A stretch of 64,000 nucleotides of DNA from Marsupella aquatica (Eukaryota; Plantae; Marchantiophyta). The DNA is taken from contig OZ316894.1 in NCBI GenBank assembly GCA_973895155.1, forward strand, positions 8,146,234 through 8,210,233. The letters run 5' to 3'. Positions within the stretch are counted from its first letter, which is position 1. Every line of letters starts with the position of its first letter. Shown in pieces: positions 15,695-39,890 of this stretch. Under the pieces are notes generated by a model. The model was not told the origin of the DNA. It was given only the letters and a program-made list of their open reading frames with translations, and did not search any database. The position numbers were made by a program, and so were the translations under genes.

Positions 15695-16052
15695 TGTCAT
15701 GCCGAGGGACAGTGCCTCTTATGCACATCGGCATGTCCCTCGCCTGCCCGCTAGGTATGTAGTTAGGGCTAGTGTACTACCTGAGTTAGCGACATGTTCT
15801 TGTAGCAAGTCTGGGCTGTTCTTGAAGCAAATGTGCTTGTTAGTGTGACGCCAGGACTTTGCTTGCTTAGGGCATGTCTTTCTTTGTGGGTTTTTCAGTT
15901 CTTCTTGAATCGCTGTTGACAGAGCTCAGACAGTGCTCGTCGGTTCCATACACGGGATTCACACAATGATTCGTTAGATGCTCCCGGCCGATCTTGGCAT
16001 CCTGCCGGTTTTTGATTCGATTTCAGTATAATTGTTTCTCTTACGCCTTTTA
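15695..16052 (+). repeat. Split repeat A1 (358 bp)
   Basis: Matches 24961-25318 with about 6 substitutions counted by eye. Confidence 0.95.
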
Positions 16053-16065
16053 TTCAAGAAGAACT
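16052..16065 (+). promoter_or_regulatory. Putative self-priming primer-binding site
   Basis: ATTCAAGAAGAACT at the end of A1 is the exact reverse complement of AGTTCTTCTTGAAT at 15897-15910. There is no TGG tRNA-type PBS here. Confidence 0.75.
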
Positions 16066-16197
16066 CCCGAGTTGGCAGTGAGGGGAAGAAGCTTGCTCGT
16101 GACGATTTCGATAATTTCTGGTGAAGCCATTGCAATTTCTTCGACGAACATCGAAGCGACGAGTTGAAAGTTATGGGTTTATGTTGTTATGTGTATA

Positions 16198-17221: not shown

Positions 17222-17372
17222 AGGGGCCCGGTTCACATATTTGACTACCGTTGCATAGGGCCCATATTTTCCCATATTTTCCCAATTTCTTTGCTGCCGC
17301 CACATGTCATCTACATAAGGTTGAGGGCCCGGCATACACATCAGACCGTCGATCCGGCAAGGACACCACAGC

Positions 17373-19349
17373 ATGTCAGCAGAGGAGCCAGGAGGTAGCA
17401 GCACATCGCCACCAACACCCAGGTACCATTTACAGAGTGATCCACGACCATTGGTGCCAATTTCATTGGAGCCTCGGCAATTTCGATGACGTCAGCAGAC
17501 AGCAGCAGTAGCACCCACACCACGCAATCCTTCTGCTACATTTGGCGGTCACTTCACCACTACTCAAAAGCCTGCTATCACTTCATTGCCATTTACCCCT
17601 TCTGCATCAGTGGTTGTTCCAGCTTCACCGACATATAGCATGGATGCTAGCCACTCATCTGGCCGCATTGAGCGCTTCAGCGGGCGGCCAGGCACTGTCT
17701 CTTTACGTGAGTTCAAATCCACTTTCTACACTGTCATTTACGAATTGGAGTTGAAGTATGGCAGCAATTTCACAAATGCTTTTGCATTTAAGCAGCTAGC
17801 CACGTATGTGCACCATGAGACGTTGGATGTGTATGAGCAACACTCTCAACGGCTGCTTGCTGTCACACAGTTGCCTAACCCTACCTATGCCAGTGCAATT
17901 ACGGCAGCCTCACAATTGGCCTTACAGAATGCCATTGCAGCCCATGCTGCTGCTCCTGCCACTTCCCCTCCTACTCCAGTTCCCACCACTGCGCCAGTTA
18001 CTCCCACTGTCTTGGCACAGGCTACATCAGGCATTTCTCCCACCATTGATTCCCTTGCCTTTGCTGATCCAGTGGCTGAGTTTTTCCAGGTTCTTGAATT
18101 GGAATTCCCAATCAAGAGTGCTGATAAAATCATGCAGTTAGCCACCTTTGTGAGGCAGCACGATGAAACATTGAAGATGATGTATCGCCGGCTTCTCAAG
18201 CTGAAGGAGGACACCCAGAGCATCACTGACCTGGAAGCTGCTCATCGCTATCTTTGCACATTGGAGGGGACACCAGCTCTCCATTCGCAAGTGTTGCAGC
18301 AAGTATTCTCAGAGTTTGGAGACAGCTACACCTTGCTCAATGTCTATGACACTGCTGAGAAACTTGAGTTGGCCCATGCACATTATGAGGCCAGTATTGT
18401 GCGTCCACCGCGATCCAGGTACCAGGCTGCTGCCCCTACACTGGCCACTCCTTCCCGTATGCCATAGTATGGTTCCAAGACCAAGCCAGCACATGCTGCT
18501 TTCATGTTGCCATCTTGCAACTACTGTGGTAACCCTAATCACAAGGCTAATGAATGTGATATTGTTGCTGAGGACCTGTCTTGTGATTTTTGCGGGAAAG
18601 TGGGCCACTTGGAGGCAGTTTGTTTTGCCAAATTCCCCGAGAGGAAGCAACTACGACAGCCGGCCACTCATCCTGCTCCTGTTTCCACTCCCCCACCAGC
18701 TAGGAGGGCTCCTACTGCATCAGTTGCTCCTCCTTCTAGTGGCAAAGCATCCAGTGCTAACAAATTGCCCAAGCAGCAACAGAAGCAACCAGCTCAAAAG
18801 GAGGCTCACAACGCATAGGCAACTCAACTCCAGTCTCTGACTCATGAGGTTGAGTCATTACGTGCCCAGCTTGCAAAAATCAAAGGCAAGTCCACTGCCT
18901 CTACTGGTCCTTCTCAACCGGCTGGTCATGTGCAACCCATCCCTGGCCCAGGCACCACTGACAGTTTAGCACCCATACCCCGCTCTTTCTATGGCATGCC
19001 ATTTGATGCTCATATGGGTGAGTGTGTGTTGTCCTCTGCTACATAGCCTGGCCTTACAGTAGAATTTTCAGATTCATTCTGCCCTTCCTATTTTGCTTAC
19101 CAGCAGGCCAGTGCTGCCTCCCGTATTGCTCCCATACGCCGCATTGTACAGGCTGATGGTCTTGCTGCTGGTCCTATGACTAGAGCCAGGGGAGCTCGGG
19201 CTGTCCTGCCCCAATCTTTTCAGCCACTCACACTTGCTGAAGAGCGCACCTTGTTGGCGAGGGGGGAGGGAGCTGCAGCTACATCCATTCCACCACCAGG
19301 TGCTGCTGACATTTCACGTACAAGGAGTTGTTCCTCCTGCGCTGCTTGA
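17373..19349 (+). pseudogene. Retrotransposon gag with two CCHC zinc knuckles, interrupted by nonsense codons
   Basis: One frame from ATG 17373 joins ORFs 17586 and 18504. Knuckles CNYCGNPNHKANEC and CDFCGKVGHLEAVC. In-frame stops at 17487, 18465, 18816 and 19044. Confidence 0.85.
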
Positions 19350-22300
19350 GCATTTCACCTCCGGTATGGCACAAAGGATTCTTACAACTGCACTTTTCAG
19401 TTGCCATGATTTACAGCTGGATGCTAGAGCTGTCATCAGAGGGCTAGAGGGTTCACTGCATTCTTCATCAGCCCCTGTGACACCGGTTTTGGAGGTCCAA
19501 TCTCATGTACATAGTGGACCTTCTTCTTCTCCATTACATGTTTCCACTGGTTTGGCTGCCCCAATACCGATTGCTGCTGATTGTGTGACCAGAGCTACAC
19601 TTGATTCTGGTCATGCTGCTCCATCTTTCCTGGCTATGTTGTTGAGTGGAAAGACCGTGGATACTAACTCCCTTCACAAGGTACCTCATCATTTGCCGAG
19701 AGTGGTGCCTAGTGATAGGACTTCAGTTTCCACCACCATTGCCATTGTTGACAACAGGAATTCAATGGTCAAGTTGGAGGGTCACACTCCTCAGGTGGTC
19801 ATGCTAGACACAGGTGCTCAACCAGTGATATTGGGCATTCAGTTTGCCAAGAAGATGGGATTGTTGACTGATCATTTACAGCAATCCAGGTGGCACATTC
19901 GGACTGCTAGTGGCACTGTGGAGGATGTGCTGGGTGAGAGTTCTACTTTACTCACTCTCACTTTTAATGGAGGTACAGATCAGGAATTGCATTTCCCAGT
20001 CAGATGTTTGGTTACCAATGCCACTACGTATGATGTGCTCATTGGCCAGGAGGCTTTGTTCCCACCAGGTTTTACCATTGACAATTGGCATACTACAGAG
20101 TTGATTGGCATACGGATGGCTCACACTTGGGCTACATTCCACTTGATTTGCATGGTGCCCATACACCTATGGCTCACCACTGTGTGTTGAAAGCAGTGCA
20201 CACAGCTACCTATGTCAACCACCCATTGCAGGATTGGATTGAGGAGGATGATGATGAGGTGGCTACTGCACATGCTGCTGTACGTATAGTAGCACTTTCC
20301 AGCAACGTGGATCATCAACCAGAGGTGGTACAACGGCTCCAAGCAGCCCATGGACCTTTGGTGGCTGCATTGCGCAAATTTGAGGATCTAGGGCAGCACA
20401 ATGGCCAACCAATAGCCCCAATCTTGAGCGCACCAGTTACATGGACTCCTCCTTCAGATGGCCTTACATTGCTTGAGCTTTTTGGTGGCATTTCTACAGG
20501 CCTGGAAGCTCTCCTACAGTCTGGCATGGTGGTGAAGCAGTACATCTATGTGGATATTGATCCAGGTGCAAGGCAAGTGTCTGAATCCCGTCTACTGGAA
20601 TTTTCAGAGCGATTTCCCTAGCAGTTTCCACACAGTGCATGGAAGTCTGCATTTTCTTTCTTTCCTCCAGATATCCAGCTTATCCAGCACCGGCACTTAA
20701 CCCTTCTTGGCTCCCTTGATTTGATCATAGCTGGTTGGGAATGCCAAGGGTTTTCAGCTGCTGGTCACGGTGCTGGACTGCATGATTCTCGTTCTGGCCT
20801 TTTCACAGCATTGGTTCAGATTCTCACCTGGGCTCAATCCCTTCATCTTGATGTTGGTTATATCATTGAGAATACTCCATCTCAGTTTGACCAGCATCCA
20901 CAGGTCAAAGAGGATTTCAGTGTGGTCCAGCACTACTTGGGACCACCCCTTCTCATTGATGTAGTGCACTGTGGTTCTTATGCACATCGTCTTCGTAACT
21001 TTTGGACTAACCTTGCACCACCTTCCTTGCTGGAGATGGCTCTTCACCACACATCCAGGGACACTAACCTTACAGTGGACCAGATTTTGGATCCTGACAG
21101 TTCTTGCCAACCAGTTACACGGCAAGAGCCAGCACCTTGGTATCCAGCCAATACCATTGGACAGCCCCGTGCTGCTTGGCCTACATTTGTGTCCTTTCCA
21201 GGTGCACATGCTTTTCAGGGTGATGGTTCTGGCCTGGTTTATCGACATTCTACCGGTACATGGGATGAACCTAGTCCTGAGGAGAGAGAACGGGCTATGG
21301 GCTTCCAACCCGGTACTACAGGTCACACCAAAATCATCTGGCTGGCCAGGAATGCTTTACTTGGCAGGGTAATGGATCTTAATGCTCTCACTTGGCTTCT
21401 GGTCACTTGCATCCTTTTTCAGATGTACATTCATCCAGCATCTGGAGTTCCAGCTCTACCACTCCATGGTGCTGCTACATGGCATCCAGACCAAGTGCAC
21501 TTACCTCTATTCAACACTCACCGCTTCAGTCCAAGTGTTGGGGGGGAGGAGGTCCCTTGTAATGTGGCTGACATTATTTCTGAGTTTCATGCTGTGGATC
21601 AGACCAGAGCAACAGATACAGTAGGCCTTGGAGAGGCCTCATCACCTTATCAGCAGCATGCTAGCAGCTTGGGTGGAGAGGCTAGCACTTCTGGCTCTTC
21701 AAGCACAAGTACATCAGGTCCTATTCCTAGTGTTGCCAACTACACATTCATCATGGGCAACCACCTGAGTAAAAGACAGAAGGACCAGCTGCTGAATTTG
21801 CTCCTCAAGCATGAGAACGTGTTTGCTTTCTCTATGAAGGACTTGGGTAAGTGCAAGACTATGCAGTTCTCCATTGAGTTGGCTGATGAAACACCTATCT
21901 TCAGGCGAAGACACCGTTTGAGTAAGCATGAGTGGCAGCTAGTGGATGAGAGGTGCCAAGAGCTCTATGAAGCTGGTCTTATTCAGCCATCTACATCAGA
22001 TTTTGCGGCAGCTACAGTGATGCCAGCAAAGAAGGATTCCAGTGGATTGTGGACAGAGAAGCGCATGTGTGGGGACTACAGGCCATTGAACCTGGTCACA
22101 CCCCAGGACAGGTACCCCATGCCACGGCCAGAGGAGCTATGTGACAGCATTGGAGACTCAGACATCTTCACTCTTGTGGATCTAAGGCAAGGCTTTAACC
22201 AGATTTTGTTGCTTGCAAAGGACCGCAAGAAAACAGCTTTCCATGGCAGTAACCAACTATGGGAGTGGTTGGTGATGCCATTTGGCTTGAAGAATGCGCC

Positions 22301-24743
22301 CATATTCTTTCAAAGAGTCATGGACCAGGTTCTTCAAGGTGCTGAGTTTCTGAAATGCTACATTGATGATGTGTTGGTCCACATCAAAGGATTTGACCAG
22401 CATCTACTTGACCTTGAGGAGCTATTCATGAGGCTTAAGAAGGTGAACCTAAAGATACACCCCAAGAAGTGTGAATTTGCTGTTAGATCAGTAGTATACC
22501 TTGGGCACCGCATTCTTCCAAATGGAACCATGGCTCACTGGGCCAAGGTGGTATCCATCTTGGAAATGCCCACTCCTACCGATGTTCACACTTTGAGGAG
22601 TTTTATTGGGTTGTGCAATTACTACCGGATCTACATCAAAGATTTCAGCACCATTGCACACCCATTGTATGCTTTGTTGAAAAAGAATGTGACTTGGACA
22701 TGGAGTACAGATGCTGAGGCAGCATTTGCCACTTTGAAGGAGAAGCTCTCAGAATACCCGATGCTGAGAAGACCTGATTTCAGCAAGGTCTTTGTGCTAC
22801 ACACAGATTGGAGTGCCCTTGGGATTGGTGCCATTATGGGCCAGCATGATGAGGAAGGTAAAGAGTACGTCATTGCCTATGCATCCAGGAGCAACAATCA
22901 GGCAGAGAGTCATTATTCTTCGTATGAGGGTGAATGCCTTGCTGTTGTGTGGGCTGTCATACATTACAGGCCCTACCTCTATGGGACCAGGTTTGTCCTC
23001 TACACCGACCACCAGCCCTTGAAGTGGTTGATGACCAATGACAAGCTTACTGACAAGCTTGCTCGTTGGGCGCTCATACTCCAGGAGTATGACTTTGAGG
23101 TAATTCATAGGCCTGGTGTGACACATCAGAATGCTGACACTATGTCCCGTAGCCCTTTGATTACCTCTGATGATTCCTCAGATGCACGGCAGGATTTTGA
23201 CCAGGTTTCCATCCTGCCTACATTTCATCTCGCATTTCATGCATCTACCTATCTTGCTTTGCTGCCATGCTATGTTGTTGACCAACTTGTGGTGGACATA
23301 TGGGAGGACAGCGACACTCTGAGATTTCTGCAGCATGGGGAGTACCCCACACATGTTACTACTGCCCAGAGAGACCGAATTCAGCAAAGGTCCAAGCGCT
23401 ACTTGTGGAAGGGAGATCATCTCGTGCGCTGCTTGCCAGACAGGGAAGTGATGGTTCCACCCATTCATGAGAGGGTTGGCCTTATTCGTAAGGTACATTC
23501 TGAGCTTGGTCATTTTGGCGTTAAGAGGACTTACAGCCTCTTGGTCCCTCATTATCATTGGAGAGGCATGCATGGCCAGGTTCGAGATGTTATTGCCCGA
23601 TGTGAGCAGTGTGATAGGGTAAGGACTTCTTTCACGTCTCGGCAACCCACACTTCACCCACTCCCTATTCAGGTCATGTTTTATCGTTGGTCATGTGATT
23701 TGGCTGGAGAATTACCCCTCACATCTCGGGGTAATCTCTACATCATGATCATGATAGAGCATTTCTCCAAGTGGATAGAACTTGTGGCATTGCCGGATAA
23801 GACCTCCCGTAGCACCAGCCAAGCATTCCTACAACAAGTTCTCAGCTGCTTTGGAGCTTGTGCAGAATGTCTCACTGACCAGGGTTCAGAGTTTAGAGGA
23901 GAGTTCCAGGAGCTACTTGATCAGGCCCTCATTGATCATCGCCGGACATCACGAGATCACCCACAGGCAGATGGCTTGGCAGAGCGCATGGTTCAGACAT
24001 GCAAGAAGGGCCTTCGGAAGATCTGCCTCACCAAAAACAAGGAGGATTGGGACCTGGCCTTACCCTACATTGCCATGGGGTATAGGATGTCCAGACATGC
24101 ATCACTATCTAACTTTTCTCCCTACTTCTTGTTGTTTGGTCGTCACCTAGTTCCACCTTCTGCTATTGCTGCTCACATGCTTCAGGTGGTGGACTTGGAT
24201 TCAGCTGTGACTTGGTTTGATGTGATCTCTGAGAGGGCTGCCCTATTCAGGAGGGTTATGCCCATGGCCATGGAGAATTTGGCCATTGCACAGCACAGGG
24301 ATACACTGCGTTATGCACACACACGAGGGGGCACTTTTCAGCCCAAGGTCAGGAAGTTTGATGTGGGAGATTTTGTGTACTTGCAGCGGCAAGCTAACGA
24401 CACCCTGGACACCTCTACCAGTCGCACTATTCTCAGGGTTAAAGCTATTCGACCGTCTGGAGTGCTAGAGTTACAAGGGGCAAATGGGCGCACAATTGCT
24501 GACAATGCCAAGAATTGCGCCCCTTGTCATCTGCCTAACCTGGATCCCACCATTGTGACTTCTACTTGGATTCCACCTGTGGACTATCCTTGCAAAGTGT
24601 GTTTGCGAATTGATGATGCTGACCAGATGCTGCTATGTGATAATTGCAATGGAGGGTACCATCTTTTCTGCCTTCGGCCTGAACTTACCCAGGTGCCAGA
24701 AGGGTTATGGTTTTGCCCTTCTTGTGCTCCACGTGCTACCTGA
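19234..24743 (+). pseudogene. Retrotransposon pol: protease - C5 DNA methyltransferase - RT - RNase H - integrase - PHD
   Basis: PR MLDTGAQ (~19800); frameshift ~20088; stop 20619; RT RMCGDYRPLN, PFGLKNAP, YIDD; RH HTDWS, YEGECLAV, TDHQPL; IN H2C2 plus WSCD, TDQGSEF, GLAERM; terminal C4HC3 PHD. Confidence 0.93.
20460..21405 (+). other. DNMT3-like cytosine-5 methyltransferase domain within Pol
   Basis: Motif I LLELFGGISTG, II YVDID, IV DLIIAGWECQGFS, VI YIIENT, VIII AHRLRNFWTNL, IX ERERAMGF, X RNALLGR, in canonical order. Confidence 0.9.
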
Positions 24744-24775
24744 ATTTTCTTCAGCCCTCCTTTTGGCTGTGGTCT

Positions 24776-24783
24776 GGGGGGGA
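24776..24783 (+). promoter_or_regulatory. Polypurine tract
   Basis: GGGGGGGA abutting the start of repeat B1, about 30 bp after the pol stop codon. Confidence 0.65.
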
Positions 24784-24958
24784 TACAGAGGTTTACACCT
24801 CCACTACGTACATACCACTTCATTTGCTTTTTCTTGGCACTTGTGAATGTGATTGGACTTTTGCTATGCATGTTGGTTGCTAGCAGCTTGCACTTATGCC
24901 TTGTCGGTGACTTGTATGTTTTCGATACACTATGGCTACGATACTATATGTCACGACA
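24783..24958 (+). repeat. Split repeat B1 (176 bp)
   Basis: Matches 25320-25495 with about 4 substitutions; ends ...tcacgaCA. Confidence 0.95.
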
Positions 24959-24960
24959 GC

Positions 24961-25318
24961 TGTCATGCCGAGGGACAGTGCCTCTTATGCACATCGGCAT
25001 GTCCCTCGCCTGCCCGCTAGGTATGTAGTTAGGACTAGTGTACTACCTGAGTTAGCGACATGTTCTTGTAGCAAGTCTGGGCCGTTCTTGAAGCAAATGT
25101 GCTTGTTAGTGTGACGCCAGGACTTTGCTTGCTTAGGGCATGTCTTTCTTTGTGGGTTTTTCAGTTCTTCTTGAATCGCTGTTGACAGAGCTCAGACAGT
25201 GCTCGTCGGTTCCATACACGGGATTCACACAGTGATTCGTTAGATGCTCCCGGCCGATCTTGGCATCCTGCCGGTTTTCAATTCGATTTCAGTACAATTG
25301 TTTCTCTTACGCCTTTTA
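24961..25318 (+). repeat. Split repeat A2 (358 bp)
   Basis: Copy of 15695-16052, separated from B1 by the dinucleotide GC. Confidence 0.95.
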
Positions 25319-25319
25319 A

Positions 25320-25495
25320 ATACAGAGGTTTACACCTCCACTACGTACATACCACTTCATTTGCTTTTTCTTGGCACTTGTGAATGTGATTGGACTTTTT
25401 CTATGCATGTTGGTTGTTAGCAGCTTGCACATATGCCTTGCCGGTGACTTGTATGTTTTCGATACACTATGGCTACGATACTATATGTCACGACA
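25320..25495 (+). repeat. Split repeat B2 (176 bp)
   Basis: Copy of 24783-24958; forms the right terminus and is followed by TSD AGTC. Confidence 0.95.
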
Positions 25496-26432
25496 AGTCC
25501 TATTTGGTCGTAACTCAACCCCTTCCATTGGTTCTAACTCCCCGCCAAGCCCTCGGCCTTGCTATTATATCCGACATTATCTCTTGCCAACCGGTTTTGC
25601 ACTCAAACATGCATCAATGGACTGGGGGCAATATTGGGATCAAAGTTGGTCCGGGGGTGTCAGGTCCCCAGATGCATATATGAGGAGACCAATCTACTCT
25701 CAAACATCAAATTTGAAAAGCTATACAAACCACACCCCCAACCACACCACCAACCCAAGGGGGCATGGTGTCTGAGAGTAAGGCGCCCGGAGAGAAAGGA
25801 GCCAAGTAAACTTGGATATGGTTATCAAAAGGGTTCATGCAAGGGGTAGGAAAATTGCGCCGCTGAAAGTGGGTTGAGCCATACCGTTGCCCCAAGGGGT
25901 CTCAGCATTGGGGCGGCCAAAGCCAAGTGAACTATTGTAGCGACTTAGTTTAAGCAAAGCCTAAAATAACCAAAATTGAGGTTACCAATGGGGTTCAGGG
26001 ATACAGTCAATGTGTTTTACTTCACAGTCACAATCACTAGTAGAAATACCCCCTATTTTTTACCAAACCACTATTGACTACTGTGACAAGGTTATGGAAG
26101 TTTAGGGTGTTATCACTACATATGTCTTAAATATCACTTCCACAAAGTTTCCACTCATTTGTTGCGACTCCTTTGCGATGTTGACTTTACCTACTCTTTT
26201 CAATCACTCATTCTTCAAGGTGCAAGGGACATTGTTCATGGTTCAAGGTTGTCCATGCACCTTTGAAGTTGGATGGGGGATACCACTTAATTACAACATC
26301 CCATCATAAGGAAAATGGCAGGTCCACTATCTAAGCTGATTGTCTTGGTTTAGGGTTCTTATGTGAGTGAGTGCTACTCACCAATTGCCAAACATTCAAG
26401 CTTTTTATGTGAGAAAGCTTCAAATAGTAGAG

Positions 26433-26566
26433 GTACCCCCTTACATGAGCCCCTTACATGTCACTGGCTGAGTACCTTAGTACTCTCCACCGTTGTGCAG
26501 TACCCCCTTACATGAGCCCCTTACATGTCACTGGCTGAGAACCTTAGTACTCTCCACCCTTGTGCG
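26433..26566. repeat. 67-bp tandem duplication inside the CACTA left arm
   Basis: gtacccccttacatgagccccttacatgtcactggctgag.accttagtactctccacc.ttgtgc occurs twice. Confidence 0.85.
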
Positions 26567-27511
26567 CGGGAGCAAATGTAGGGTCTTCGTCCGCAAAGAG
26601 GGTTTACAAAGGGGAGGGGAGGTGGAGCGAATGAGGCGACTCATTGAGAGGGGCGATCGATAGTCGATCAATCAAGGAGGGAACGAAGGTTTATGGAGAA
26701 ACAATGGGATTCTTAGTGTGCAGTGAGTCGGGCTCTCTGTGATTTCAGGGAGGAGGAAGGGTTTGACACCACACTTGAAGCGACCTGACCACATTCAATC
26801 GGGTGCTGGGTGCGTTTGCGAGTGCTCCCTGAAGGCATTGCGGGGGCATTGCGGGAAATTATAGGGTCGGACGCCAAGTTCGTGGTGCGGGGGTCGGTCT
26901 TCCTCCATTAGCTTTGTAAGTCTTTACCTCTTTGCCTTGCATAGCATTGGGAGATGAGAGGAGAGGAAGTGCTTCTTGCTCTTGCGGTCGAAGACTCTCT
27001 GTGATTGAAGGGAGGAGGAAGGGTTTAGGGCCACACTTGAAGCGCAACGTGACCACATTCACCCAGGTGCTAAGTGCGTCCATCTTCCGCCATTTGCTTG
27101 TTGGGTTGTTCTTCGGTCAAGAGGAGAACAAGCTAGAACAAAAACACGCTGCGACATTGGAGCGGGCGACATTGGAAGTGCCGGGTTTAGGGTGTCAACT
27201 TGTTTTCAAGACCGCTGATCTCTGGTGTGGTGTTGGGTGCGGCTGGTGTTCAAGCAAAGGTGAGAGGTCCCGTGCGACGCACTGTGGTGCTTCATTGTGC
27301 TCTGTTTGTACTCTGTTTGTTCATCTTAACTCTGGAAAATTAATGACAGCAAAAACTATGGTTCATATATAGAAGGTTGTCCCTATTCGAGACCTCTCTT
27401 GCTGAATTCTCACCTCACTCTCTCTCGCCCTCTCTCTCGGTCTCGCTCTTCCATCGTGTCTTGCTCTTCCATTGTGTCCACTCTCTGTTGCAAATTTCTC
27501 TCTCTCGCGAT

Positions 27512-28488
27512 CCTCAAGTACGTGTCATCATCTCTCCCTCTCTTATGCATGCCCATCACTATAGCAATCTCATGTCGGGGTCAGCGTCGAACTTGGATTT
27601 CACTATGGAAATGTAGATGGGATCACAGTATATTGTTGGCACTTTCATTCTGCTTCGGCTTGAATTGCTCTAATCTTATACACTAGTATTCTAGTGTGCA
27701 GAAGTGTTGTGCAGAACTAAGGTGGGGTGCGGGGGGTTTTTCTTTGCCTTTGCTGAGCTGTGATTTCAACTCAACGGTCCTGTCCTTAGTCGCTTAGTGC
27801 TTATTTGTGTCTTGCAACAACTTTTCAGACCTGCGCGCCTGCAATGCTTGTACTTTCAGAATTGCAGACTTTAGAGTATACTCTTGTACTGTCAATGACT
27901 AAATTAGAAGTTATTACGCGCGCCTACATGCTTCACTTGTGTCTTTGGAGGCTTTCGGATTAGAGGTTGCACAAAGCATGGATGTCATAGCCCTAAACTT
28001 CAAATTTTCCTGCATGCAATTCTACCTCTACATTCATGTTTCGGCAACAGGAAGAACGCAAAGGGAGCAGGTCACTCTTCCATTGACTACTTTGCCACTG
28101 TATGTATTCAATGTACAGGACATTAGTCAAATGTGATACTCTATAATGTACTCCTCCACGAACAACTAATGAGCCACAGAACTGATGAGCCACACTCTGT
28201 CTGTGGCACTTGCAGATCATTTTTCCACCCGTTCGAGAGCTTTCTCTGTTGCCAAGCTAGGCACAAAGAAATCATTCCAGGGTTTTGTCAACTCCTGAGG
28301 TCTGTAATCACTCAGAGCCCTCTACATTGTCATTGCTTTGTCTTCACTGGTGGTCTCAGGGTCGAGCGTTTGTGCTGCTTATCCTCAAGTATGTACAGAA
28401 ATCTCTCCCTCTCTTATGCATGCCCATCACTATAGCAATCTCAGGTCGGGGCCAGGGTCAAGCCAGGATTTCACTATGGAAGTGTAGA
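27512..28488. repeat. Dispersed direct repeat of about 105 bp in the CACTA left arm (27512-27617 and 28382-28488)
   Basis: Shared tcctcaagta..atctctccctctcttatgcatgcccatcactatagcaatctca..ggatttcactatggaa.tgtaga. Confidence 0.75.
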
Positions 28489-28897
28489 CTAGATTTGGGT
28501 TATTTGATTGGATTTTATGTATGGGGTGTCGATTGTATTCTACTGGCCTTCTTGCTGTGCTGAGCAATGTCCTGTTGTGGACTTTTGAATTCTTCTACTG
28601 GTTCCCCTTATTTTTGTGGCCCCCAAAATTTATAAAAATTAATGTGTGAAAATGCTAGCCCAACAATTGCCCACCTTTAATGGCAGAAATCGTTCAGTAA
28701 TTGCCTGTGTACAATCTCAGAGTCCTAAACTTAAAATTTCCTCCATGCACACAACCCGTCTTGAATTTAGAACTTGAAATTACAGTTTCTCAAATCTTTG
28801 GTATTAATTCATAGTTTTAGTTTCTCATTCTTTGCATGCTTCACTACGTCACTGACTCTAGCCATATATTGTGTTGTTTTCTATCGGGGTAGAAGTC

Positions 28898-29620
28898 ATG
28901 GCTCGTCCAAAACGGTCAGCACACAGAGGCGGATCACAGGTGAGGCACGATTCCATGAGTAGACATCATCATTGGTCCAATGCACAAATTCATCAAAAAG
29001 CCGCTCATGTCTGTGCCATTTGTGACGATGGAGGTGACCTGGTCATGTGTGATGGCCCCTGCCTAAGACAATTCCATGTCAATTCCTGGTCCACTTATGC
29101 ACCACAAAATGCATGCCCTGGGGTTGGGCTCCGGGGGGACCATCGGGGTGCTTGGACTTGCTTTGATTGTGCCACTAATATCAGCAAGTGTGCTCAATGT
29201 GGCACAAACGGCACTGTTGAGGGGGATCAACCAGAGCTGCGGAAATGTCCTGACAGGTTTTGTGTTCGTTTTTTTTGTTTGACATGCCTGCCCCATGATA
29301 ACTCCCTTTGCCCACTACATATTTGTCCTGCTTGTGGGGAGCCTGATGATGACTACTGGATAGACATGGTCCATTGTCCCAGATGTCCCATAGCCTGGCA
29401 CCATGAGTGTTTACTAGCCCTTCAGGCAGAAGGGTATGCATGTGACCGCCAAATTTATTCCCACTCTGCACACGGGGTTGATAGGTGGTTTTTGTATTGC
29501 CACCTCCATACGATTGACCCTCATTTGCAGACCCCTGCGAGAGACCACTTGACTTGGCTATTGCTGGATGATACCTCCAGCGCCAGCAACAAAACAAGTG
29601 GATCAGCACCAACAGGCTGA
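28898..29620 (+). CDS. EDM2-like (NSD-type) tandem atypical PHD-finger protein, CACTA cargo, 240 aa
   Basis: VCAICDDGGDLVMCDGPCLRQFH, CPLHICPAC, CPRCPIAWHHECL and C-terminal LYCHLHTIDPHLQTPARDH, matching the PHD region of plant EDM2 as recalled. Confidence 0.85.
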   Translation: MARPKRSAHRGGSQVRHDSMSRHHHWSNAQIHQKAAHVCAICDDGGDLVMCDGPCLRQFHVNSWSTYAPQNACPGVGLRGDHRGAWTCFDCATNISKCAQCGTNGTVEGDQPELRKCPDRFCVRFFCLTCLPHDNSLCPLHICPACGEPDDDYWIDMVHCPRCPIAWHHECLLALQAEGYACDRQIYSHSAHGVDRWFLYCHLHTIDPHLQTPARDHLTWLLLDDTSSASNKTSGSAPTG

Positions 29621-30523
29621 GCTAAATGAATCCAACATTGCACATCTCACATTTTGGACTTTTTAATGAAGTGGGCACCTCACTGCGCTGTCAACCATAG
29701 CTCAGACACACCCCGCTACAGTGAGCTATCGATCGACTTTGTGACTGCATAGTAAATTTGGATCTTGCTTTTTCAGTTCAGCCATACATGGTTCTGTCCT
29801 TATACTTTCGTACACGATGACACCTCCAAAACTAACTAAGTTAACTTATTTTTTGAAGACTGATTAAGTTAATTGCAATTTCAAAGTTAGGGCCTGCACA
29901 AGTATGTCTGTGTTTTTTCCACTTTGAGTGAATCATGTGTATGGCAAGAGACCATAACTGTGAAAGACTAAAGATTCCAAGCAGACTATTGCCTGGAGTA
30001 AAACAACATGCATGCATTGGAGTATGAAAATACATATATAGCTCAAATTATGTATTTGTTTTTGCTCTTAACAAAGGTCATCTTAAGTCGTGTGCCTGAC
30101 CCATACATTTGTACAATTACAGATGTGACTGGAAATTGGGCAGTTGAATGATATCATTCTCAGTCCCCACCACTGTCACGTAAGATACAGGTATTCAAAT
30201 GTGAATTCAGGCTATATGCAGACAAGATAATATAAAGGGCCACATGTATGCTATGTGTATACTGAAGTAGGCTGTCGCTCTACTTTCATCAATGTATTTA
30301 CATGAACACATGGTGAAAATAATTTGACTGAAGAGTATATAGTTTGTCCTATAACTCCGTGCTGGGATTTACTGCATGTATTGACTTTCGATCTTGTCAT
30401 GTGTGCCACAATCAGGGAGCTAGAGTGCACTTTGTGTCATCAGAGAGCATTGGGCTGAAGCATTGAGGGACAGGCAACGCGGGCACTGGTATTTCTCTAT
30501 TGGCTTTTATTACAGGAGGCATC

Positions 30524-31450
30524 ATGCCTTCCAAACGGAAGCGTGAACTTGTCCCCCTTCCAACTTCCCAGTGTGCTCCCATCTTCCAAGGGGTCAGAGT
30601 CTTTTTTGTCCCAGGTATTCAGAGTGCAAGATTGGATATCCTTAGGAGAAAACTCATTGAGTGTCACGGTACAGAGACACAATCTCAACTACAGGACACT
30701 GAAGTCACCCATATTATTGCAGAAACATGGGAACATTGTCTGAGAATGGCATCTTGGTCGGTTTTCTATGACAAAGTCTTCTTGAGGCATGTCAAAATAC
30801 TTTCAGCAGAATGGATGTCTGACTCCCTTAGAAAAGGGAGTGTCCAAGATCCTGATGATTACAATTTGTTTGAGAGCAAGTACAATAGCGTCCAAATGAT
30901 GAAAGACAATCAAGATTGGCACAAGGCTCGTAGAATTGCAGGGAGAGGTGGGAGTAGGGTTCCGTCTATTGACCAGATCACAAAAGTATACAACAACATT
31001 ATCCCATATGAGACAGAACCCATCCCAGACCGTACCATGTTCAGAGGTGTGAGGGCTGTTATACTTGACAAGTCTATCGAGCCATATAGGGTCTGTCGTT
31101 TCAAGAGGGAGATCAGTAGAAGAGGTGGTACAGTGATTGAGAAGCTCACTAATGAGACCACCCATCTCATTGCTCATTCATATTCTAAGGCATGCCGAGA
31201 GTATGGAAAGTCCACAGTACGATGGCTCATCACACATGGGCTGCGTGTGGTCTGCCCTGAATGGGTCAGGCAGTCACTTTCAACAAATATGCGATTAGAT
31301 GAGCATAAATATGATTTATATGAAATATGGCCAGCAAAGCCATTCATTCCCTATGACGACCCAGAATATGTTACTTCTGAGTTCCAGACCACGGATGAAG
31401 AGTTTTCTGATAGTGCGTATGATTCTGTTAGCCCTAATGATTATGAATAA
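30524..31450 (+). CDS. Tandem BRCT-domain protein (DNA polymerase lambda-type BRCT), CACTA cargo, 308 aa
   Basis: NLS-like MPSKRKR. Repeat 1: IFQGVRVFF..VTHIIA..EWMSDSLRKG..DDYNL. Repeat 2: MFRGVRAVI..GGTV..TTHLIA..EWVRQSL..KYDL. Acidic tail. Confidence 0.85.
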   Translation: MPSKRKRELVPLPTSQCAPIFQGVRVFFVPGIQSARLDILRRKLIECHGTETQSQLQDTEVTHIIAETWEHCLRMASWSVFYDKVFLRHVKILSAEWMSDSLRKGSVQDPDDYNLFESKYNSVQMMKDNQDWHKARRIAGRGGSRVPSIDQITKVYNNIIPYETEPIPDRTMFRGVRAVILDKSIEPYRVCRFKREISRRGGTVIEKLTNETTHLIAHSYSKACREYGKSTVRWLITHGLRVVCPEWVRQSLSTNMRLDEHKYDLYEIWPAKPFIPYDDPEYVTSEFQTTDEEFSDSAYDSVSPNDYE

Positions 31451-31858
31451 GGTCTCAACTGTCTGTATGCTAGACGGTTACATTTTTGAAATAAACTTTT
31501 GTGTGTTATTTTTTGTCTACAAGACATTACTCCTTTTCATCCTCCAAATGTCTTGGTTTTGCATGTGGAGATGTATGGCAGTGTATGATGTACGTTGTAC
31601 CATTGACTGGTCAACGACCAAGCACTTCACTGATTATAGCAAGTCTGTTATGATGTTGCTGCCTGCAGTGAGCAGATGATACGTGAGCAGGTCGGGCGCC
31701 AGCATAGAGCGGACTTGATAGTGAGTGTGTTTAGCGTCTATGATATTTCCTTCATGAAACTTGCATGTGTCCCCTCCATGTACTTAGAATATGCAATTGT
31801 ATAAGCCTGTCTAGTGCAAAGGGTACATAGCCAAGGGGTGCCTACGACAGCTGAAGGT

Positions 31859-34800
31859 ATGGATCAGGCAAATGAGGATGGACAGTTGGGGCAAAGGAAT
31901 CAGAGACATACCAATGAAGTGCGACTCCCTTTGCATCACCCACTGAGGATTACACGTCATGACTCCAAGTTGTGGAATAGAGAGGTGCTTAGAGCAAGTC
32001 GGGGCAGAAATGCCCGGATGAGATGCCCCTGCATGCAATGTCGAGGATACCACTCGATGACCCTGAACCAAGTGCATTCTCATCTTCAAAGGCATGGAAG
32101 ACATCCAATCCGCAGGGTGTGGAATGTGCCAGAGGAAGAGGATTCATCGGATGATGAATGGAGAGCAGATTTTGAAAATGTGAATACAGCAAGACGCTCT
32201 GCATTCTTTCATAACGTCACTGGTCATGCAGGCAACAATGCCGAAGATGAGTATGTTCCACAGGGAGGTCCCGAGACTTCTAATGAGGACGGGGCAGATG
32301 TTCCTAGGATGGTTTCCGACATTTTTCAAGACCTGGATGCACTTTATGAAGATGCAGAGGCACAGGGGGACGAAGAACCAGACATGCATGGTGCAGATCC
32401 ATCGGACCAAGAAGAGTTTGACATTGGAGAAGGAGCTGGAGATGATGGTCAATTCTTGGGAACTGGGGCCTACTTGGAGGAAGCTATGTCCCCATTGTAT
32501 GGTGGTGCAAATTGCTCCAAACTAGGGTTCATAGTGATGTTCCTCAATATATGTGGATGTCACCGTGTGCCCAACATATGTGTAATAGAGTTGTTGATGT
32601 TCCTACAGAGGACAGTACTACCCGCTGGAAACATTGCTCCTAAGAACATGTATGAGGCAAAGAAGGTGATCATGAGCAAACTTGGTTTGAATTATGTGTC
32701 CATCCATGCATGCCCAGATAGCCATGTACTTTTCAGAAAAGAATATGCTGATTGCCTATCCTGCCCTATCTGCGGAAAGCACAGATATAAGAACGTGGGG
32801 AAGTCAACTCAACCTGCTAAGGTCCTACGGCATTTCCCTCTCATTCCAAGATTGCAGCGCCTCTATAGGTGTCCATCCATTTCTAAGATGATGACTTGGA
32901 CCTCTGATCAGAAGAGTACAGATGGTTTGCAACGTCACGTTGGAGATTCCAACCACTGGAAGTACATAGATGAGAAGTGGCCAGACTTTGCAGCAGAGAG
33001 CAGAAATGTGAGGTTTGGTCTAAGCCTTGACGGTGCTAATCCTTTTGGAGACAAGAACAACGTGTATTCTTGCTGGCCAGTGACTTTGATAAATTAGAAT
33101 CTCCCGCCTTGGATATCCACCAAGCGTTTTTTTGTGATCTTGTGTCTTATGATTCCCGGCCCAAACTCTGCTATAAGTGCAAACATAGATGTTTGGTTGG
33201 CCCCTGCGGTGGAGGAATGGGTTACTCTATGGACACATGGAGTTATGACAGTTGATGCACTTTGTGGACCTGGTAGACCGAGGACATTCAACCTACGTGC
33301 AATGTGTGTTAATTCAATAGCAGACTACCCTGGACATAGCATGATATCTGGGCAGGTAGGGAAGGGATATCTGGGTTGCACACGATGTGGCCCAGATGTT
33401 ACATCTGAACGGTCCGTTTCCTTGGGCAGTATCAAATTCCAGGGCCACAGGCGATATCTTCCTGCCGACCACCCTTTCAAGCACAGGCAATCCCACATAG
33501 CCCACTTCAACAACCAGAGGGAGCTTCGAGAGTCTCCTGTGTTGGTTAGTAGAGACCAACTTCTGCAGTGGGGACTGAACAAGGTGTCTTATGATGAATA
33601 TGGTGCTTGTAGAGACGTGCCAGATGACCCAGCAAAGACTCATGGCATCAAAAGGCAGACAATGATGGACACATCATTGGAGTATTGGAAGGTAACATTT
33701 GCATATTCACTTGTACTCAGTGAACCTCTTCAGATCCTATGCACAACAGTTTTTAGTTCTTGTGTCTGAACCTAATTGTGGCAATCATGCGTACTTCATG
33801 GGTGCAGGATTTTGAGCCAAGCAAACATAACATTGATGTTATGCACATTGAGAAGAATGTATGCGAAAGTCTTTTGAAGTTTCTATCGGGGGACAACGAT
33901 ACTGCAGAAATACGAAAGGACCTTCAGGAGAAGGGCATTCGTCCTCAACTTTGGCTGCAAGAATCCCAGAATAGGCCGGGTGTGGTTTTCAAGTACCAAG
34001 CTCCATATGTTTGCACCCAGAATGAGTGGAACACAATTTTGTCTAGGCTGAGTTCGTTCAGAGTACCCTCTGGGTACGCTGGAGCCTTTGCAAAGCATAT
34101 AAGGAAGAAGAAGTTGGGAAGCATGAAAACTCATGACTTCCATGTTATGATGCAAGACATTCTACCAGTATGTCTGAGGGGATTGATGCAAAAACCAGTT
34201 CGCAATGTCATTTTGAGACTGTGTCAGATCTTTCGTCGTATTTGTGTGAAGGTGTGGGACCCTACAACATTTCCTCAGTTAAAGGCAGATACTGTGCGTG
34301 TGCTTTGTGACTTGGAGATTTATTTCCTGCCAGCATTTTTTGATGTCATGACTCATTTGATCATCCATGCGGTTGAAGATCTGGGCCACTACGGCCCAGT
34401 GAGTACAAGGTGGATGTATCCAATGGAACGGTACATGAAGTTGCTAAAAGGCCATGTACGTACTTATTACAGACCTGAAGCAAGCATGGCTCTCGGTTAC
34501 ATTCAAGAAGAGACCTTGGGGTTCCTTACAGAGTACATGGCTGGTGTAGACAGTGTTAGGAGCAGGGTGTGGGATGCTGAGGAAGAAGAGGGGGTGGCTG
34601 GAGAGGTTCTTCAAGGCGCTTTTACTTCCTTGCAATTGTCTGTAGAAGTTCGTGATGCAGCACACTTATATGTCTTACACAATACAGTCATGATGCAACC
34701 TTGGTGGCAGTGAGTACTCATGTTTCCGCACCCTCCTTGCATTCCTTCTTTATTCATATCCATTTTGGTAGGATATGTACATTGTATTGAGAAATTGTTC

Positions 34801-35574
34801 TCATTGTCATCATGCAGGGAATACAATGTGCAGAAGGCCGCCCAATTAGGGTTAAATCACCAGGCATTCCCTACTTTTCCTGAGTGGATCAGGACAACAA
34901 TTCGAGAGCATAGCAGGCAGAACCCAAACATGGATAGAGATGTTCTCCTCTTGTCTGTGCCTCCCAGACGTATTGTACAGCGGTATAAACGGATGAAAGC
35001 ATATGGGAATCAGTACCGTGTGCATGATGATGAGGACAAGCATTTAGTGACATATAATTTGGGGGTAATATCTGTGTTTGAGCATATAGATGCTCAGAGC
35101 AACAGGGGCTGGATGGAGATGGGATATGTTGGGGAGTTGGCAGACATCTGGGCACTGAATTATGGGAACACATCACAACAAATCTTCCTAATGAAAGGTT
35201 CATGGGTGAAGCCAGATTGGCATGGGCCAAGAGCGACCATGAAACGGGATATGGATGGCTTTCTAATGGTCAATTTTAACCAAAGACTGGCAGAATGGAT
35301 GGAGCCTTTTGTGTTCCCAAGTCAAGTGGAGCAAGTATTTTTTTTAGATGTGGAGGAGTCTCGTGGTTGGCGTGTAGTCTGCCATAGCTCACCTAGAGTT
35401 CGAAGGATGGAGGGTACTAAAATAGAGTTCAGTTTGGATGCACATGGGGCCTTTGAACAGCCGGCAGTAGACGTTGTACATCGGGGCCAGGGGACCAGGG
35501 AGTACATCCCCTTGACAGTGAGACAGACTTATGAGGGAGAGGTTGAAGCTGACATGGACGAAGATGATGAGTAG
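31859..35574 (+). pseudogene. CACTA TnpD/Tnp2-like transposase with one premature stop
   Basis: CPCMQC associated domain, IHACPDSH, RHFPLIPRLQRLY, GLSLDGANPFG, ADYPG, IDVMHIEKNVCESL, MKTHDFH, RWMYPMERYM, EPFVFPSQVEQVFF. Introns 33692-33807 and 34710-34817. In-frame TAG at 33095 (IN*NLPPW). Confidence 0.93.
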
Positions 35575-35872
35575 TTGGATTTGTTTTGTTGTGAGTAGGT
35601 GACTCTTTGAAGTGCAATGAGTAGCAAGTATGAGCAATAAATGGATGACTTGTTTGTGCAACCGCAGTAACTTGGTGAGTAGGATGCCAGACGAAAATGG
35701 CATGTGTGAGTATGAGAAGCAGGCTGTGAAACATCGAGCATGGGTTCGCCAATGTGCCGCAGCCCTGTTGGGTGATGTGCAAGAGGCTATTTCGGATATG
35801 TAAGGGACTGTGCATAGTATGAGCTGTATGTGTATCTCGTTGTGTGCGTCTGTTCATTGTGTAGCTTCTGTA

Positions 35873-38800
35873 ATGGACTACTACATACATAACCTGTGTC
35901 GAATTTCATGTGGGTGTTGCAGTAACAAAAGTATCCCAACACTGTCGAAGCGGAGTCAGTGTAGACGGAAGACCTTCTGTAATCCTGACGGACCTAGGCG
36001 ACGCAGTGAGAGGTTGACTTCAAAGACCCCTATTTCAATGGCTGAATCTCCTGATAAGAATGAGGTAGAGGATTGCATGCCTGATGTTGGTGATACAGAA
36101 TATGATCCTGACCAAGATCCGAATGCAAGTGCTAGCATGTCAGAGGATGATGACATGCCAAATCCTACCCCTCCACCAAAGCCTGCTTGCAGTAAGGCAA
36201 CTGGGGGAACTTCTATGAGATCTCGACCGACGCCCTCTGTATACTCAGCCCAAGCCCCAAGCAACAGCAATTGCAATAACCCCCAATTTAATGCCCCCAA
36301 CTATAACTGGCCGCAAGCACGACAGGGGGGCAATAACTATGGCGGGTCTATGGGTGTAGGCCCTTCTGCCAGCTATATGGGTTGGCCAAGTAAGTGTGAA
36401 CATTTTAATTTGTTTCATGTGGACAAGTGTATTTTGAGCTCAAATTGGCTGATTGTGTTCCTCAATAGATGTGGGTCTGAGTATGACAATTTGCCTGGTC
36501 TGATGTGAATGGCAGACCCAATGTGGGACCGTATGCAGCCCACAAATATGTATGAAGGAGGGTCAATGGGGCCATCGGGGCAATTCATGGGAGGTCCTCT
36601 CCCAATGGCGGCAGGATGGCAAGGTTATGGTGGGTATGGTGGGAACCCAGCACCAGCACCAGCACCTTCAGTCCAACCGACACAGAGTCTACGGAGGGGA
36701 GGAGGTATTTTCTACAGCAGTTCTAAGTAAAGTATTGAAATCAGGTAGTTCACAGAGACCATATGATATTAATGGTGTTAATTGCGTTTCTCTTTTCAGA
36801 TAACCCTATCACACCCCGCTCAGGCCATGGGAGAGCAACTCCTGGATTTGCAACACCAAGTAGTGCGTCAGGGAGCACTGGGAGAGGTGAGAATGTGAAG
36901 CTGGGTACTGTTGAAGTTGATGATGAAGGCCGGATCACAACGATGAGTGCTGGAAAGAATAGATGGCACAATGACTTGCGAATGGAGTGTCTACGGTGGT
37001 TGGACATTAGCTGTACTAACTTTAATTGTCAACATCCATCTGACTGGGAACTGGTTTGCAAATATATGCGAGACAAGTGGGAATATTTGGGGAATTCTGG
37101 GAAAGGGGTCAGTGCTGATTGTCTTGCAGAGTATGGACGAACTATCATGAAAATAGAGAGGCATCGATTGCACAAAGCATGGATTGCTGATGGCAGTAAA
37201 CCACATGCTGAAGCACCCCCAAGTGTTCATGTAGAACAATGGACTCGACTGAGAGGGACATTCCTGTCTAGGGCAGGACAGGAGAAGTCTGCACAAATGA
37301 TTGCTGCTAGAAATGCAGTGAAGAATCCTACGCTTACAGGGAGGGGAGGACATGCACCAGTAGTAGCCAAATTGGTTGGGTTCCCATGCCATACATATCT
37401 TTATTTACATTTCAATATTTGAGTGGACTGTATGTAGTTGTAGCAGCACGCTACGTTTAGGCAAGATTGACATTGAGAAACGTGTCTTGCAATGTTTATG
37501 TGCTCCAGAAAAAGCTTACTGGAGAGAAACCCACAAAAGAGGAGGTTGTGGCAGAAATCAAAAGGGTAAAGTGTGATGAAGGCAGCATTGGATCTAAACA
37601 GGTAATTTAGGAGCATTATTGATGGACAATCTGTTATACAGTCCTTCTTCAGATGTACAGTACTATCAGCCCTTATGCAATTGTAAAATTGCTGAGAAGA
37701 GCCGTTTGGTTGGTGTATGTGATATATAGCAGGGAGCAGTGTCTACCCTTACAGAGATATCAGACCGGTTGAAGACTGTGGAGAACGCTTGGCCATCAGT
37801 AGAGACTGAGATGAAGAGTCAATTCAAGGACATAGCTAGTCTTCTTCAAAGCCAAGGATCAACCTTAAGGGAAGTACAAGCTGAACTACGTGAGTTGCGG
37901 GCGATGCACATTGCTGGCAGGGTTGAGCACCCAATTGCACATCCATATGAAGAGCCTGCAAATATTGTGGAAGTTGTGCCTACAAAGAAGAGTGGTACGT
38001 GTCATCTGAAATCATGTTTAGTGTAGTGTGACTTTACCTAGGAATTTGAGGTTCATGGATGCAGGATGGTTCAGGTTCAGGTTCTAGACCCTGAAGGTTT
38101 GTTACATTGTGTATCAGGTGATCAGATTGCAGTGGTTGCAGCAGATCCAAAGATCATCGAACCTGGTACAACTGTCATTGAGAGTAAGTAAATGTTGGTT
38201 TGAAGACTCTGTCTGGCCTGTTAATGTGGTTGAGTATCTATGCCATGTACGTTCAATTAGTGCAAACTTGATGGTTTGTTGACAGCTTTAGTGCCTATAT
38301 GCTTAGTTGTAAATGAAGGAATTTGTGGCTGCTATTGAGGTATAGAGCCAGCACAGGAGGAGGTGCGCATACCAAATCCAGCAGGCAGGAAGAGGAGACA
38401 AAACTTAGAGGCTACCAAATTTTCAGATTCACAGGAGAAGCAGAGTGATGACAATGATGTGATTTTCATAGACTCTCAGCCTCCCCCAGGTATTGGAGAT
38501 GAGTTTTCTCAATCCCCACCACTGATGAACATGGGAAAGATGAGGACCAGAAACAGTGGGAAGGAGACTTTGCCTTACAAGGCACCAAAGAAGAAGAGGA
38601 ATAACACTTCTCCAAAAGGGACAGCAGTGAGCATTGTAGCACAGTCTTCTAGGCTAATGGCAACTGATAATTCTGGTGTTTGTGTTGGGCAAGGCATACT
38701 TCAAATTGAAGCAAGTACTTTCCATGGAAAGAAGGTACTTGCTGATCATGTTGTGCTGTTGTTGACTGCTGTCAGTAAGCCCAAATATCTTCTACCCTTT

Positions 38801-38890
38801 CCAAACAAGGGAGATGATCCGCCACACATCCATCTTGTGGATGCTGTGGAATCATTTGTGATGTGGCCTGAGAAATTTGTAGAGTGTTAG
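35873..38890 (+). CDS. CACTA second gene (TnpA-like; Ptta/En/Spm-type and Tnp1-like domains), multi-exon, boundaries approximate
   Basis: Low-complexity N-terminus; R(H)RLHK..PPSVHVEQWTRL..KSAQMIAARNAVKNPTLTGRGG (36800-37375); coiled coil (37739); C-terminal FHGKKV..LPFP..VESFVMWP. Confidence 0.7.
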
Positions 38891-39389
38891 GTACCAAATA
38901 CAATTTGAGACTCAAAATGTGAAGGATTGTTTCAATATATGACCACAATTTGGAGTACATGATGTTGGGTAATACTCTTTTTTTTATGGATTGCTCATAT
39001 TTTGAGTTATTATCGTGCCATTGTTAGTTGGATTGGTGCTTTTGTGACATTAATGACTCAGTCTCGACTATGAATGACAGCATTGTCTACGGAAACTAGT
39101 GCGGTCAATTGAGTGTTATCAATCACTCACGGAAAACCCCATATGACTCGAACTAAGTCATTCTAAACACTTATGTTTGACTGATGTATGGTTCCAAATA
39201 CTTGACCCTCTAGTCACTAAAATGACTAATGACACTAGTCAATAATATGACTAAGTTAATCCAAGTCACCACTTTTATGACTACTAGTTGCAAGAACGAT
39301 GTCAGTGATTTTCAGTCATACATGACCGGTTTTAGTCATAGTTAGTCGTATTTTATGGTAAAAAATAGGGGGTATTTCTACTAGTGAAT

Positions 39390-39890
39390 CTTTCACTAAC
39401 AACATTCCTTTACTTATCGATTGTTTTGTATTTAACAATATCTTGGTTTACTTTTAACGCCATCATTTTACCAGCTTTGACATAGTGACATCTTTGACAT
39501 AACGACATCTTTGGCTTCACAACATATTTTTACTCAGACTACATCTTTGACATAACAACATCTTTTACTTGATGACATCCTTCACGTAAGGACATCTTTG
39601 GCGCCCGCTTTGGTGCCACAACATTTTTTCACCCGACAACATCTTTCAAATAATGACATTGTGTAACTTGACAACACCTTTCACATAAAGACATCATTCA
39701 TTTGGCAACATGGCTTCTTTTGACTTGACGACATCTCGGGCAACACGATATATATTTTTTGAATGACATCTTGGGCAACACGACATCTTTTCTCTTAATG
39801 AATTCTTGCATGGGTGACATGACATCTGTTTTCTTAACAATGTCTTGTGCGATGCGATAACTATTTTCTTAACAACATCTTGGGTGACAG
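39390..39890. repeat. Degenerate tandem array with a period of about 17-18 bp (core ACATCTTT / GACATC)
   Basis: Recurrent gacatctttgacataacgacatcttt-type units immediately to the right of the CACTA. Confidence 0.7.

Follow-up and report, generated by a model that had tools for sequence, protein, structure and literature searches.

A stand-alone EDM2-type triple zinc-finger gene inside a CACTA transposon as a probable accessory gene

Results

The 64,000-nucleotide stretch of DNA analysed here (the window) contains a CACTA element that carries a gene for a stand-alone EDM2/NSD-type triple zinc-finger protein, and this gene is very probably a selected accessory gene of the element, whatever its mode of action. 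As for that mode, we put first, at a probability of roughly 0.4, the reading that the protein is a binding adaptor that keeps the element expressed in silenced or marked chromatin. A single open frame, from the ATG at 28898 to the TGA at 29618–29620, encodes the PHD protein, and none of 300 base shuffles of 26035–31800 gave an ATG-started ORF of 240 aa, the longest being 193. The element measures 13,352 bp, with perfect 31-bp terminal inverted repeats (TIRs; CACTA...TAGTG) and an AAT target duplication on each side, and the ORF lies upstream of the transposase gene in the same orientation. Thus the frame, the TIRs and the strand all confirmed the initial annotation, which had described an open 240-aa ORF inside the TIRs, co-oriented with the transposase. 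The coordinates are collected in Table 1.

Table 1. Features of the CACTA element and of its PHD gene (window coordinates).
Feature	Position	Strand	Remark
Left target-site duplication, AAT	26032..26034	.	
Left CACTA terminal inverted repeat	26035..26065	+	31 bp
108-bp repeat, copy 1	27510..27617	+	donor-like site at 27518; predicted end of non-coding leader exon
108-bp repeat, copy 2	28381..28488	+	86% identical; donor-like site at 28389, predicted splicing
T-rich tract and TAG, predicted splice acceptor	28869..28892	+	5 nt before the PHD ATG; one of three such sites in 26035-32000
Stand-alone EDM2/NSD-type triple zinc-finger ORF	28898..29620	+	240 aa
Basic leader, aa 1-35	28898..29002	+	predicted nuclear-localisation region
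Finger 1, aa 39-91	29012..29170	+	AIRE/CHD4-like PHD
Finger 2, aa 98-141	29189..29320	+	His-to-Cys ligand change; ~20-aa host insertion lost
Finger 3, aa 143-204, plus tail	29324..29548	+	conserved EDM2-type tail to His217
Second cargo gene, tandem BRCT	30524..31450	+	308 aa; acceptor-like CAG ending at 30515
CACTA transposase (TnpD-like), spliced	31859..35574	+	Pfam; in-frame TAG at 33095-33097
ORF pieces at the TnpA-like gene position	35804..38890	+	named by position only; no convincing Pfam/PDB match
Right terminal inverted repeat	39356..39386	-	
Right target-site duplication, AAT	39387..39389	.	

The CACTA TIRs, the 3-bp target-site duplication and a Tnp2/TnpD transposase are all present, and the element therefore belongs to the CACTA (En/Spm) group. 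The transposase matched PF02992, PF13960 and PF13952 (Transposase_21/DUF4218/DUF4216) above the Pfam cut-off; in this copy it contains a premature stop, which we counted against our best explanation. A search for a TnpA-like DNA-binding gene among the 3' ORF pieces gave no convincing match in Pfam or PDB. Downstream of the PHD ORF, on the same strand, lies a second cargo gene with two BRCT stretches (Pfam BRCT_2, 4.6e-14), whose product showed weak matches to Rad4/TopBP1 and ligase IV; none of 305 candidates of similar length scored as a relative, and three of its four listed differences were synonymous. Both this gene and the premature stop had been missed by the initial annotation. We also considered a Pack-CACTA, that is, a non-autonomous element with recent, unconstrained cargo, and rejected it because the element has a full transposase gene and its cargo is constrained and ~33% identical to host proteins. 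The CpG value was 0.35 in the PHD ORF, 0.30–0.51 in the rest of the element and 0.82–0.84 in the flanking kinase genes, a depletion that is consistent with long residence in a methylated transposable element (TE) and is no test of function.

The ORF had been called intronless, which holds for its coding part and probably not for the gene as a whole, since a predicted T-rich TAG acceptor ends at 28892. Indeed, a simple filter applied to 26035–32000 returned three T-rich YAG sites, two of which precede the ATG of the PHD gene by 5 nt and that of the BRCT gene by 8 nt; across the CACTA element, such a site precedes 11 of 396 ATGs. This prediction suggests that the PHD and BRCT genes may be alternatively spliced from a shared non-coding leader.

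The insertion site appears to be another repeat with 17- and 35-bp units (25728–26034 and 39387–39890), and contigs from two sequencing runs (X2 and X3, see below) join 25915 to 39765, possibly as empty-site relatives. Next door, a Gypsy LTR element (15694–25495, plus strand; 300-bp repeats at 15694 and 24960) has in its pol region a C5 DNA-methylase-like stretch before the reverse transcriptase (RT) and, behind the integrase, a PHD finger; this is a further reader capture, independent of the one in the CACTA element. The TE cluster is flanked by two related kinase genes (3354–11720 and 47319–56171, plus strand) ~44 kb apart, which look malectin/LRR receptor-like by eye, share the repeats D5, D7, D8 and D11, and are barely depleted in CpG. 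The window further contains a frameshifted Copia-like pol (56929–60019, minus strand; integrase, RT and RNase H by eye) and an acidic 595-aa ORF with 93-bp tandem repeats (62141–63928, plus strand). The kinase genes and the Gypsy and Copia elements, together with the homologues, indicate a land plant, probably a seed-free one.

A different, rather doubtful reading is that the array is an insertion-targeting tether: it would recognise a histone mark and, by way of the transposase, the TnpA-like protein or the BRCT protein, direct integration to repeat-rich chromatin, while the BRCT pair would recruit repair factors to the break. The position of this copy, which sits in an array of 17/35-bp repeats inside a TE cluster, the PHD at the integrase end of the adjacent Gypsy element, and the neighbouring tandem BRCT gene with its Rad4/TopBP1 and ligase IV matches would all fit such a tether. 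Furthermore, no other domains are fused to TE proteins as often as PHD and chromo readers, and targeting by tethering to chromatin is already known, according to the available text of 10.1101/2021.11.30.470311. The cases published there are, however, fusions, whereas the present protein is separate, and a single insertion site was observed here. We slightly prefer anti-silencing to insertion targeting.

The PHD protein starts with a basic leader (7 K/R versus 1 D/E in residues 1–35), as had been stated in the initial annotation, and the structure model shows this leader as disordered up to a helix at aa 28–34. Every one of the 24 ligand positions holds a Cys or a His. In comparison with 12 host EDM2-type proteins, 23 of the 24 are unchanged and one has Cys in place of His, so that the description of a diverged protein with most Cys/His ligands kept was correct; the His-to-Cys change is common to all five stand-alone rows, and the stand-alone protein has lost a further His, at position 96, that is invariant in the hosts. 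The EDM2-type C-terminal motif reported earlier is likewise present, with a matching motif in register in maize EDM2 (P0020), and the ORF ends 23 aa past it, the folded part being the zinc-finger array alone. Ahead of finger 1, other sequence has taken the place of the acidic stretch, with no D/E in 15 residues versus a median of seven in 144 other matches, a set for which seven host-type rows were sorted out by a loose pattern.

Two NSD-type PHD models of Pfam scored just below the cut-off, and the closest PDB sequence match was the PHD region of NSD2 (8e-9); among the PDB sequence matches there was no plant structure of an EDM2-type reader. A structure model based on 14 family sequences reached a pLDDT of 75, and fold searches gave partial matches to NSD PHD-C5HCH, PZP and other H3-binding PHDs, with NSD2 as the best (VIA Z 5.0, rmsd 2.7 over 75 residues); an EDM2 structure was absent from these matches. 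Finger 1 retains the Asp of CDG and the G-x-W, as in AIRE PHD1, which we take to be the pockets for H3 Arg2 and Ala1. These residues argue against an unlikely alternative, in which the fold is kept without histone binding and the protein is a decoy or scaffold that attaches to an element protein, or to a host factor that partners EDM2-like proteins, and titrates a complex for silencing or RNA processing. The family-specific changes on a long stem would speak for it: the acidic stretch and the finger-2 insertion are lost, a new helix stands before finger 1, and one ligand His has become Cys.

We searched for long relatives with a profile and obtained 19 matches among 2225 candidates, of which the first 16 were EDM2-type (27–33% identity, E-values down to 1e-30); 15 of these came from named land plants, and six were annotated as ENHANCED DOWNY MILDEW 2. 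They were followed by two oomycete CHD proteins and one further protein. The EDM2-type origin proposed in the initial annotation is thus borne out, the closest long matches being EDM2-type and not unrelated PHDs. A near-length search gave five matches among 70 candidates (53–58% identical, 220–278 aa), and the ligands are intact in five stand-alone proteins at 55–63% mutual identity. Together with cluster members, the 150 HMMER matches listed out of 417 included at least 21 short relatives with the family features (93–278 aa), eight of which span the whole array and 13 of which are truncated or drift out of frame. The transposon context was seen for this copy only and may be extended to runs X2–X6. 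Two other short proteins (P0066 and P0072, ~385 aa) have a basic N-terminus and a canonical-type EDM2 finger array; P0066 groups among the angiosperm EDM2s, as an independent truncation. A metagenome scan yielded three loci from 247 pattern matches; one (L001) proved to be an unrelated PHD-repeat protein, and the others (L002 and L003) match only 22 residues. In viral contigs, none of 160 matches was confirmed, and no viral origin is indicated at that sensitivity.

Part of 28300–31600 was contained in six sequencing runs (X1–X6) from three organisms and four studies, X1 and X2 possibly being the window's own source. None of the six was listed as RNA, which has no bearing on expression. Cover was found in all 30 bins for X2, X3, X5 and X6. 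In X6, the dominant contigs over the PHD, BRCT, transposase and 3'-end regions had depths of 202–292, depth not being copy number; a single contig runs from the PHD ORF into the beginning of the BRCT gene, and none spans PHD to transposase. We infer that the PHD gene was co-amplified with the rest of the element. The sparse cover over 26468–28403 in X5 and X6 proves nothing. Loose ends in these two runs resemble the P0001/P0002 form by eye, a second, diverged subfamily also at high depth.

Compared with the dominant variant (X4–X6), 40 of the 43 majority differences in the ORF comprised 20 synonymous and 20 non-synonymous changes, with two difference rows falling in a compensated one-base realignment, so that their residues are uncertain. 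The expected synonymous share is 0.23 without and 0.32 with transition bias, giving omega values of ~0.29 and 0.46 (p = 1.4e-4 and 0.011), respectively. In the finger core, 13 differences were synonymous and 14 were not (p = 0.003 without and 0.053 with transition bias), and no ligand codon was changed among the ORF differences. On one X6 contig, 35 of 661 sites differ in the ORF (5.3%) versus 83 of 931 (8.9%) in the following, mostly non-coding part (p = 0.0065), with two gaps in the former and 13 in the latter. The BRCT and transposase pieces diverge by 2.5–4.7%; the constraint on the PHD ORF is moderate and weaker than that on the transposase. Judging from these substitutions, the PHD ORF is under moderate purifying selection. 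Three differences take the PHD of this copy away from the family majority.

The single-copy, neutral capture that the initial annotation had considered did not emerge; instead, the ORF is a conserved family feature under constraint. Accordingly low is the chance of a neutral Pack-CACTA-type capture that hitch-hikes with an amplifying element, which we regard as very unlikely. Pack-CACTA capture of host DNA is described in the available text of PMC13317346, and both the 13 broken relatives and the drift of this copy from the majority would be expected under neutrality. However, all ligands have been kept through ~40% protein divergence with a synonymous excess, the divergence lies below that of the spacer, and the ORF begins with an ATG of its own downstream of a predicted acceptor; some broken copies would turn up in every TE gene family, and the truncated relatives may also simply end with their contigs. 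Similarly improbable is that the short protein stems from a normal host gene family in a plant lineage not yet sampled, from which the CACTA element recently took one member under the host's constraint, since, despite a transposon context seen only in this copy, none of the 21 relatives has a species-named record, many are broken, the PHD depth in X6 equals that of the transposase, and the second form is also at high depth.

We also analyzed the donor of the family by phylogeny. The stand-alone proteins form one side of a branch with 100/99–100 support, with an internal depth like that among land-plant EDM2s. A first, smaller tree left the donor position without resolution. In a 26-row tree, for which five near-duplicate rows were dropped and three proteins had no extractable core, the canonical EDM2 group (liverwort, moss, lycophyte and angiosperm rows, plus rows grouped by sequence) excluded the family at 82/96, the tree being unrooted with a long stem. 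After the removal of five more rows, including the long-branch P0154, the canonical EDM2 split received 99/100, and the family attached among short liverwort paralogues, beside Calypogeia P0031, at 81/82. Forcing the family together with moss canonical EDM2 gave a borderline p-AU of 0.044, and its stem branch amounts to 1.5–2.6 changes per column. Furthermore, of 176 proteins, 15 have a short motif ahead of finger 1, namely 13 of the stand-alone type and two from Calypogeia, by a pattern defined after viewing them. We infer, with the tree as a lead, that the donor was probably an EDM2 paralogue of the liverwort type, captured long ago.

Such a second EDM2-like protein is found in Marchantia, Riccia and Calypogeia (P0015, P0031, P0033, P0051 and P0061; 619–768 aa), in which the finger array stands at the C-terminal end and the long C-terminal part known from canonical EDM2 is missing. 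The donor question matters because the studies of H3K9me2 and polyadenylation, as far as their available texts go, concern the Arabidopsis and rice EDM2 (PMC7529245, PMC3632883, PMC9292364) and not the liverwort paralogue. Since the family is a clade outside canonical EDM2 and its acidic stretch is replaced, H3K9me2 reading and the ASI1/AIPP1 biology are not simply transferable to it.

Discussion

Under the anti-silencing reading, the protein would enter the nucleus by means of its basic leader, and its array is predicted to dock on H3 tails in marked chromatin. Since it is a small, predicted nuclear protein made solely of reader-type fingers, with no catalytic or RNA-binding domain, it would act by binding only, as an adaptor or a competitor. 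A DNA-binding protein of the element would most likely recruit the array to copies of the element itself. There the array would promote transcription and help it run on through both upstream cargo genes as far as the transposase, with a shared 5' leader from which the PHD, BRCT and transposase transcripts are presumably spliced.

This reading was put first because the transposase lies behind two upstream genes, while host EDM2 controls read-through past proximal poly(A) sites; indeed, the available text of PMC7529245 describes EDM2 as bound to TE chromatin that is marked with H3K9me2 and as a suppressor of proximal polyadenylation. In addition, Spm TnpA activates elements while H3K9 methylation persists, according to the main text of 10.64898/2026.08.24.746577, and a transcription helper for marked chromatin would fit such copies. 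The intact ligands, the synonymous excess, the lower divergence than in the spacer, the similar contig depths in X6, the acceptor-like sites before both cargo ATGs and the partial matches of the model to H3-binding PHDs also speak for it. Against it we counted the moderate constraint, the loss of the acidic stretch, a transposon context seen for this copy only, that a histone reader has no sequence specificity, any partner being putative, and that the nearest paralogue is not canonical EDM2 but the liverwort type.

In its fullest form, which we regard as speculative and doubtful as a whole, an old CACTA lineage in seed-free plants would carry a leader-spliced, two-gene kit of an EDM2-type reader and a tandem BRCT adaptor, and would hijack the host's read-through of heterochromatin so that silenced copies make transposase, reading the mark and controlling RNA processing without erasing methylation. 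If this were true, a free, selected copy of a module that serves plants in transcribing heterochromatin would be a strategy unlike those of VANC and TnpA, which act on DNA sequence, and unlike the fused TE readers, as far as these are described in the sources available. The 240-aa protein would also be a natural minimal version of an EDM2-type reader, and its array of ~200 residues suits direct peptide binding tests. Furthermore, the finding draws attention to the little-studied EDM2 paralogue in liverworts.

No report of a CACTA-borne EDM2-type gene appeared among the matches listed in full-text searches, although preprint supplements or Repbase may contain one, and the word 'PHD' is absent from the main text of a survey of 962 Spm protein models (10.64898/2026.08.24.746577). 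New here are the second, BRCT cargo gene, the acceptor-like sites before both cargo ATGs, the place of the clade outside canonical EDM2 and next to a short liverwort paralogue, and the replaced acidic stretch.

Among the known systems, the VANC proteins of VANDAL Mutator elements had been named in the initial annotation as analogous in role. VANC/KIU (Ulp1-carrying) is, in the available text of PMC13547354, a VANDAL accessory gene probably captured from the host chromatin regulator MAIN, and VANC acts through DNA motifs and drives hypomethylation, according to that of PMC13317346. The analogy is loose: both are accessory genes of DNA transposons, the present one of an autonomous-type family, and probably captured host chromatin regulators, but VANC belongs to another superfamily and, like TnpA, is sequence-specific, which a histone reader alone cannot be. 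Indeed, a VANC/MAIN-related domain is absent from the 240-aa protein, the whole folded part of which is the zinc-finger array of reader type.

Spm/CACTA TnpA likewise regulates CACTA elements as an accessory factor, and arises by splicing or from a gene of its own. It is, however, a tandem HTH DNA-binding protein derived from transposase, as stated in the main text of 10.64898/2026.08.24.746577, whereas the PHD gene is host-derived and additional to the 3' ORFs at the TnpA position. The PHD and chromo readers fused to TE proteins share the recruitment of a histone reader by a TE; those described are fusions, while here a separate gene encodes a whole three-finger EDM2-type array and is paired with a tandem BRCT gene.

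EDM2 itself, known from the ASI1–AIPP1–EDM2 complex, shares the atypical triple-finger array and the tail motif with the stand-alone protein at 27–33% identity. It has ~800–1600 aa in contrast to 240, and the RFD and the C-terminal domain are found only in EDM2; the acidic regions, PGR and methyltransferase-like ELP domain that the available text of PMC7529245 gives for EDM2 are absent from the 240-aa ORF. The stand-alone protein differs further in having lost the acidic stretch and the finger-2 insertion, in lying outside the canonical clade and in being transposon-borne. The short liverwort EDM2 paralogue (MPTK1_1g03210 type), its nearest branch in two trees, likewise has no acidic stretch, but is larger (~620–770 aa), with a long N-terminal part, and retains the finger-2 His and insertion.
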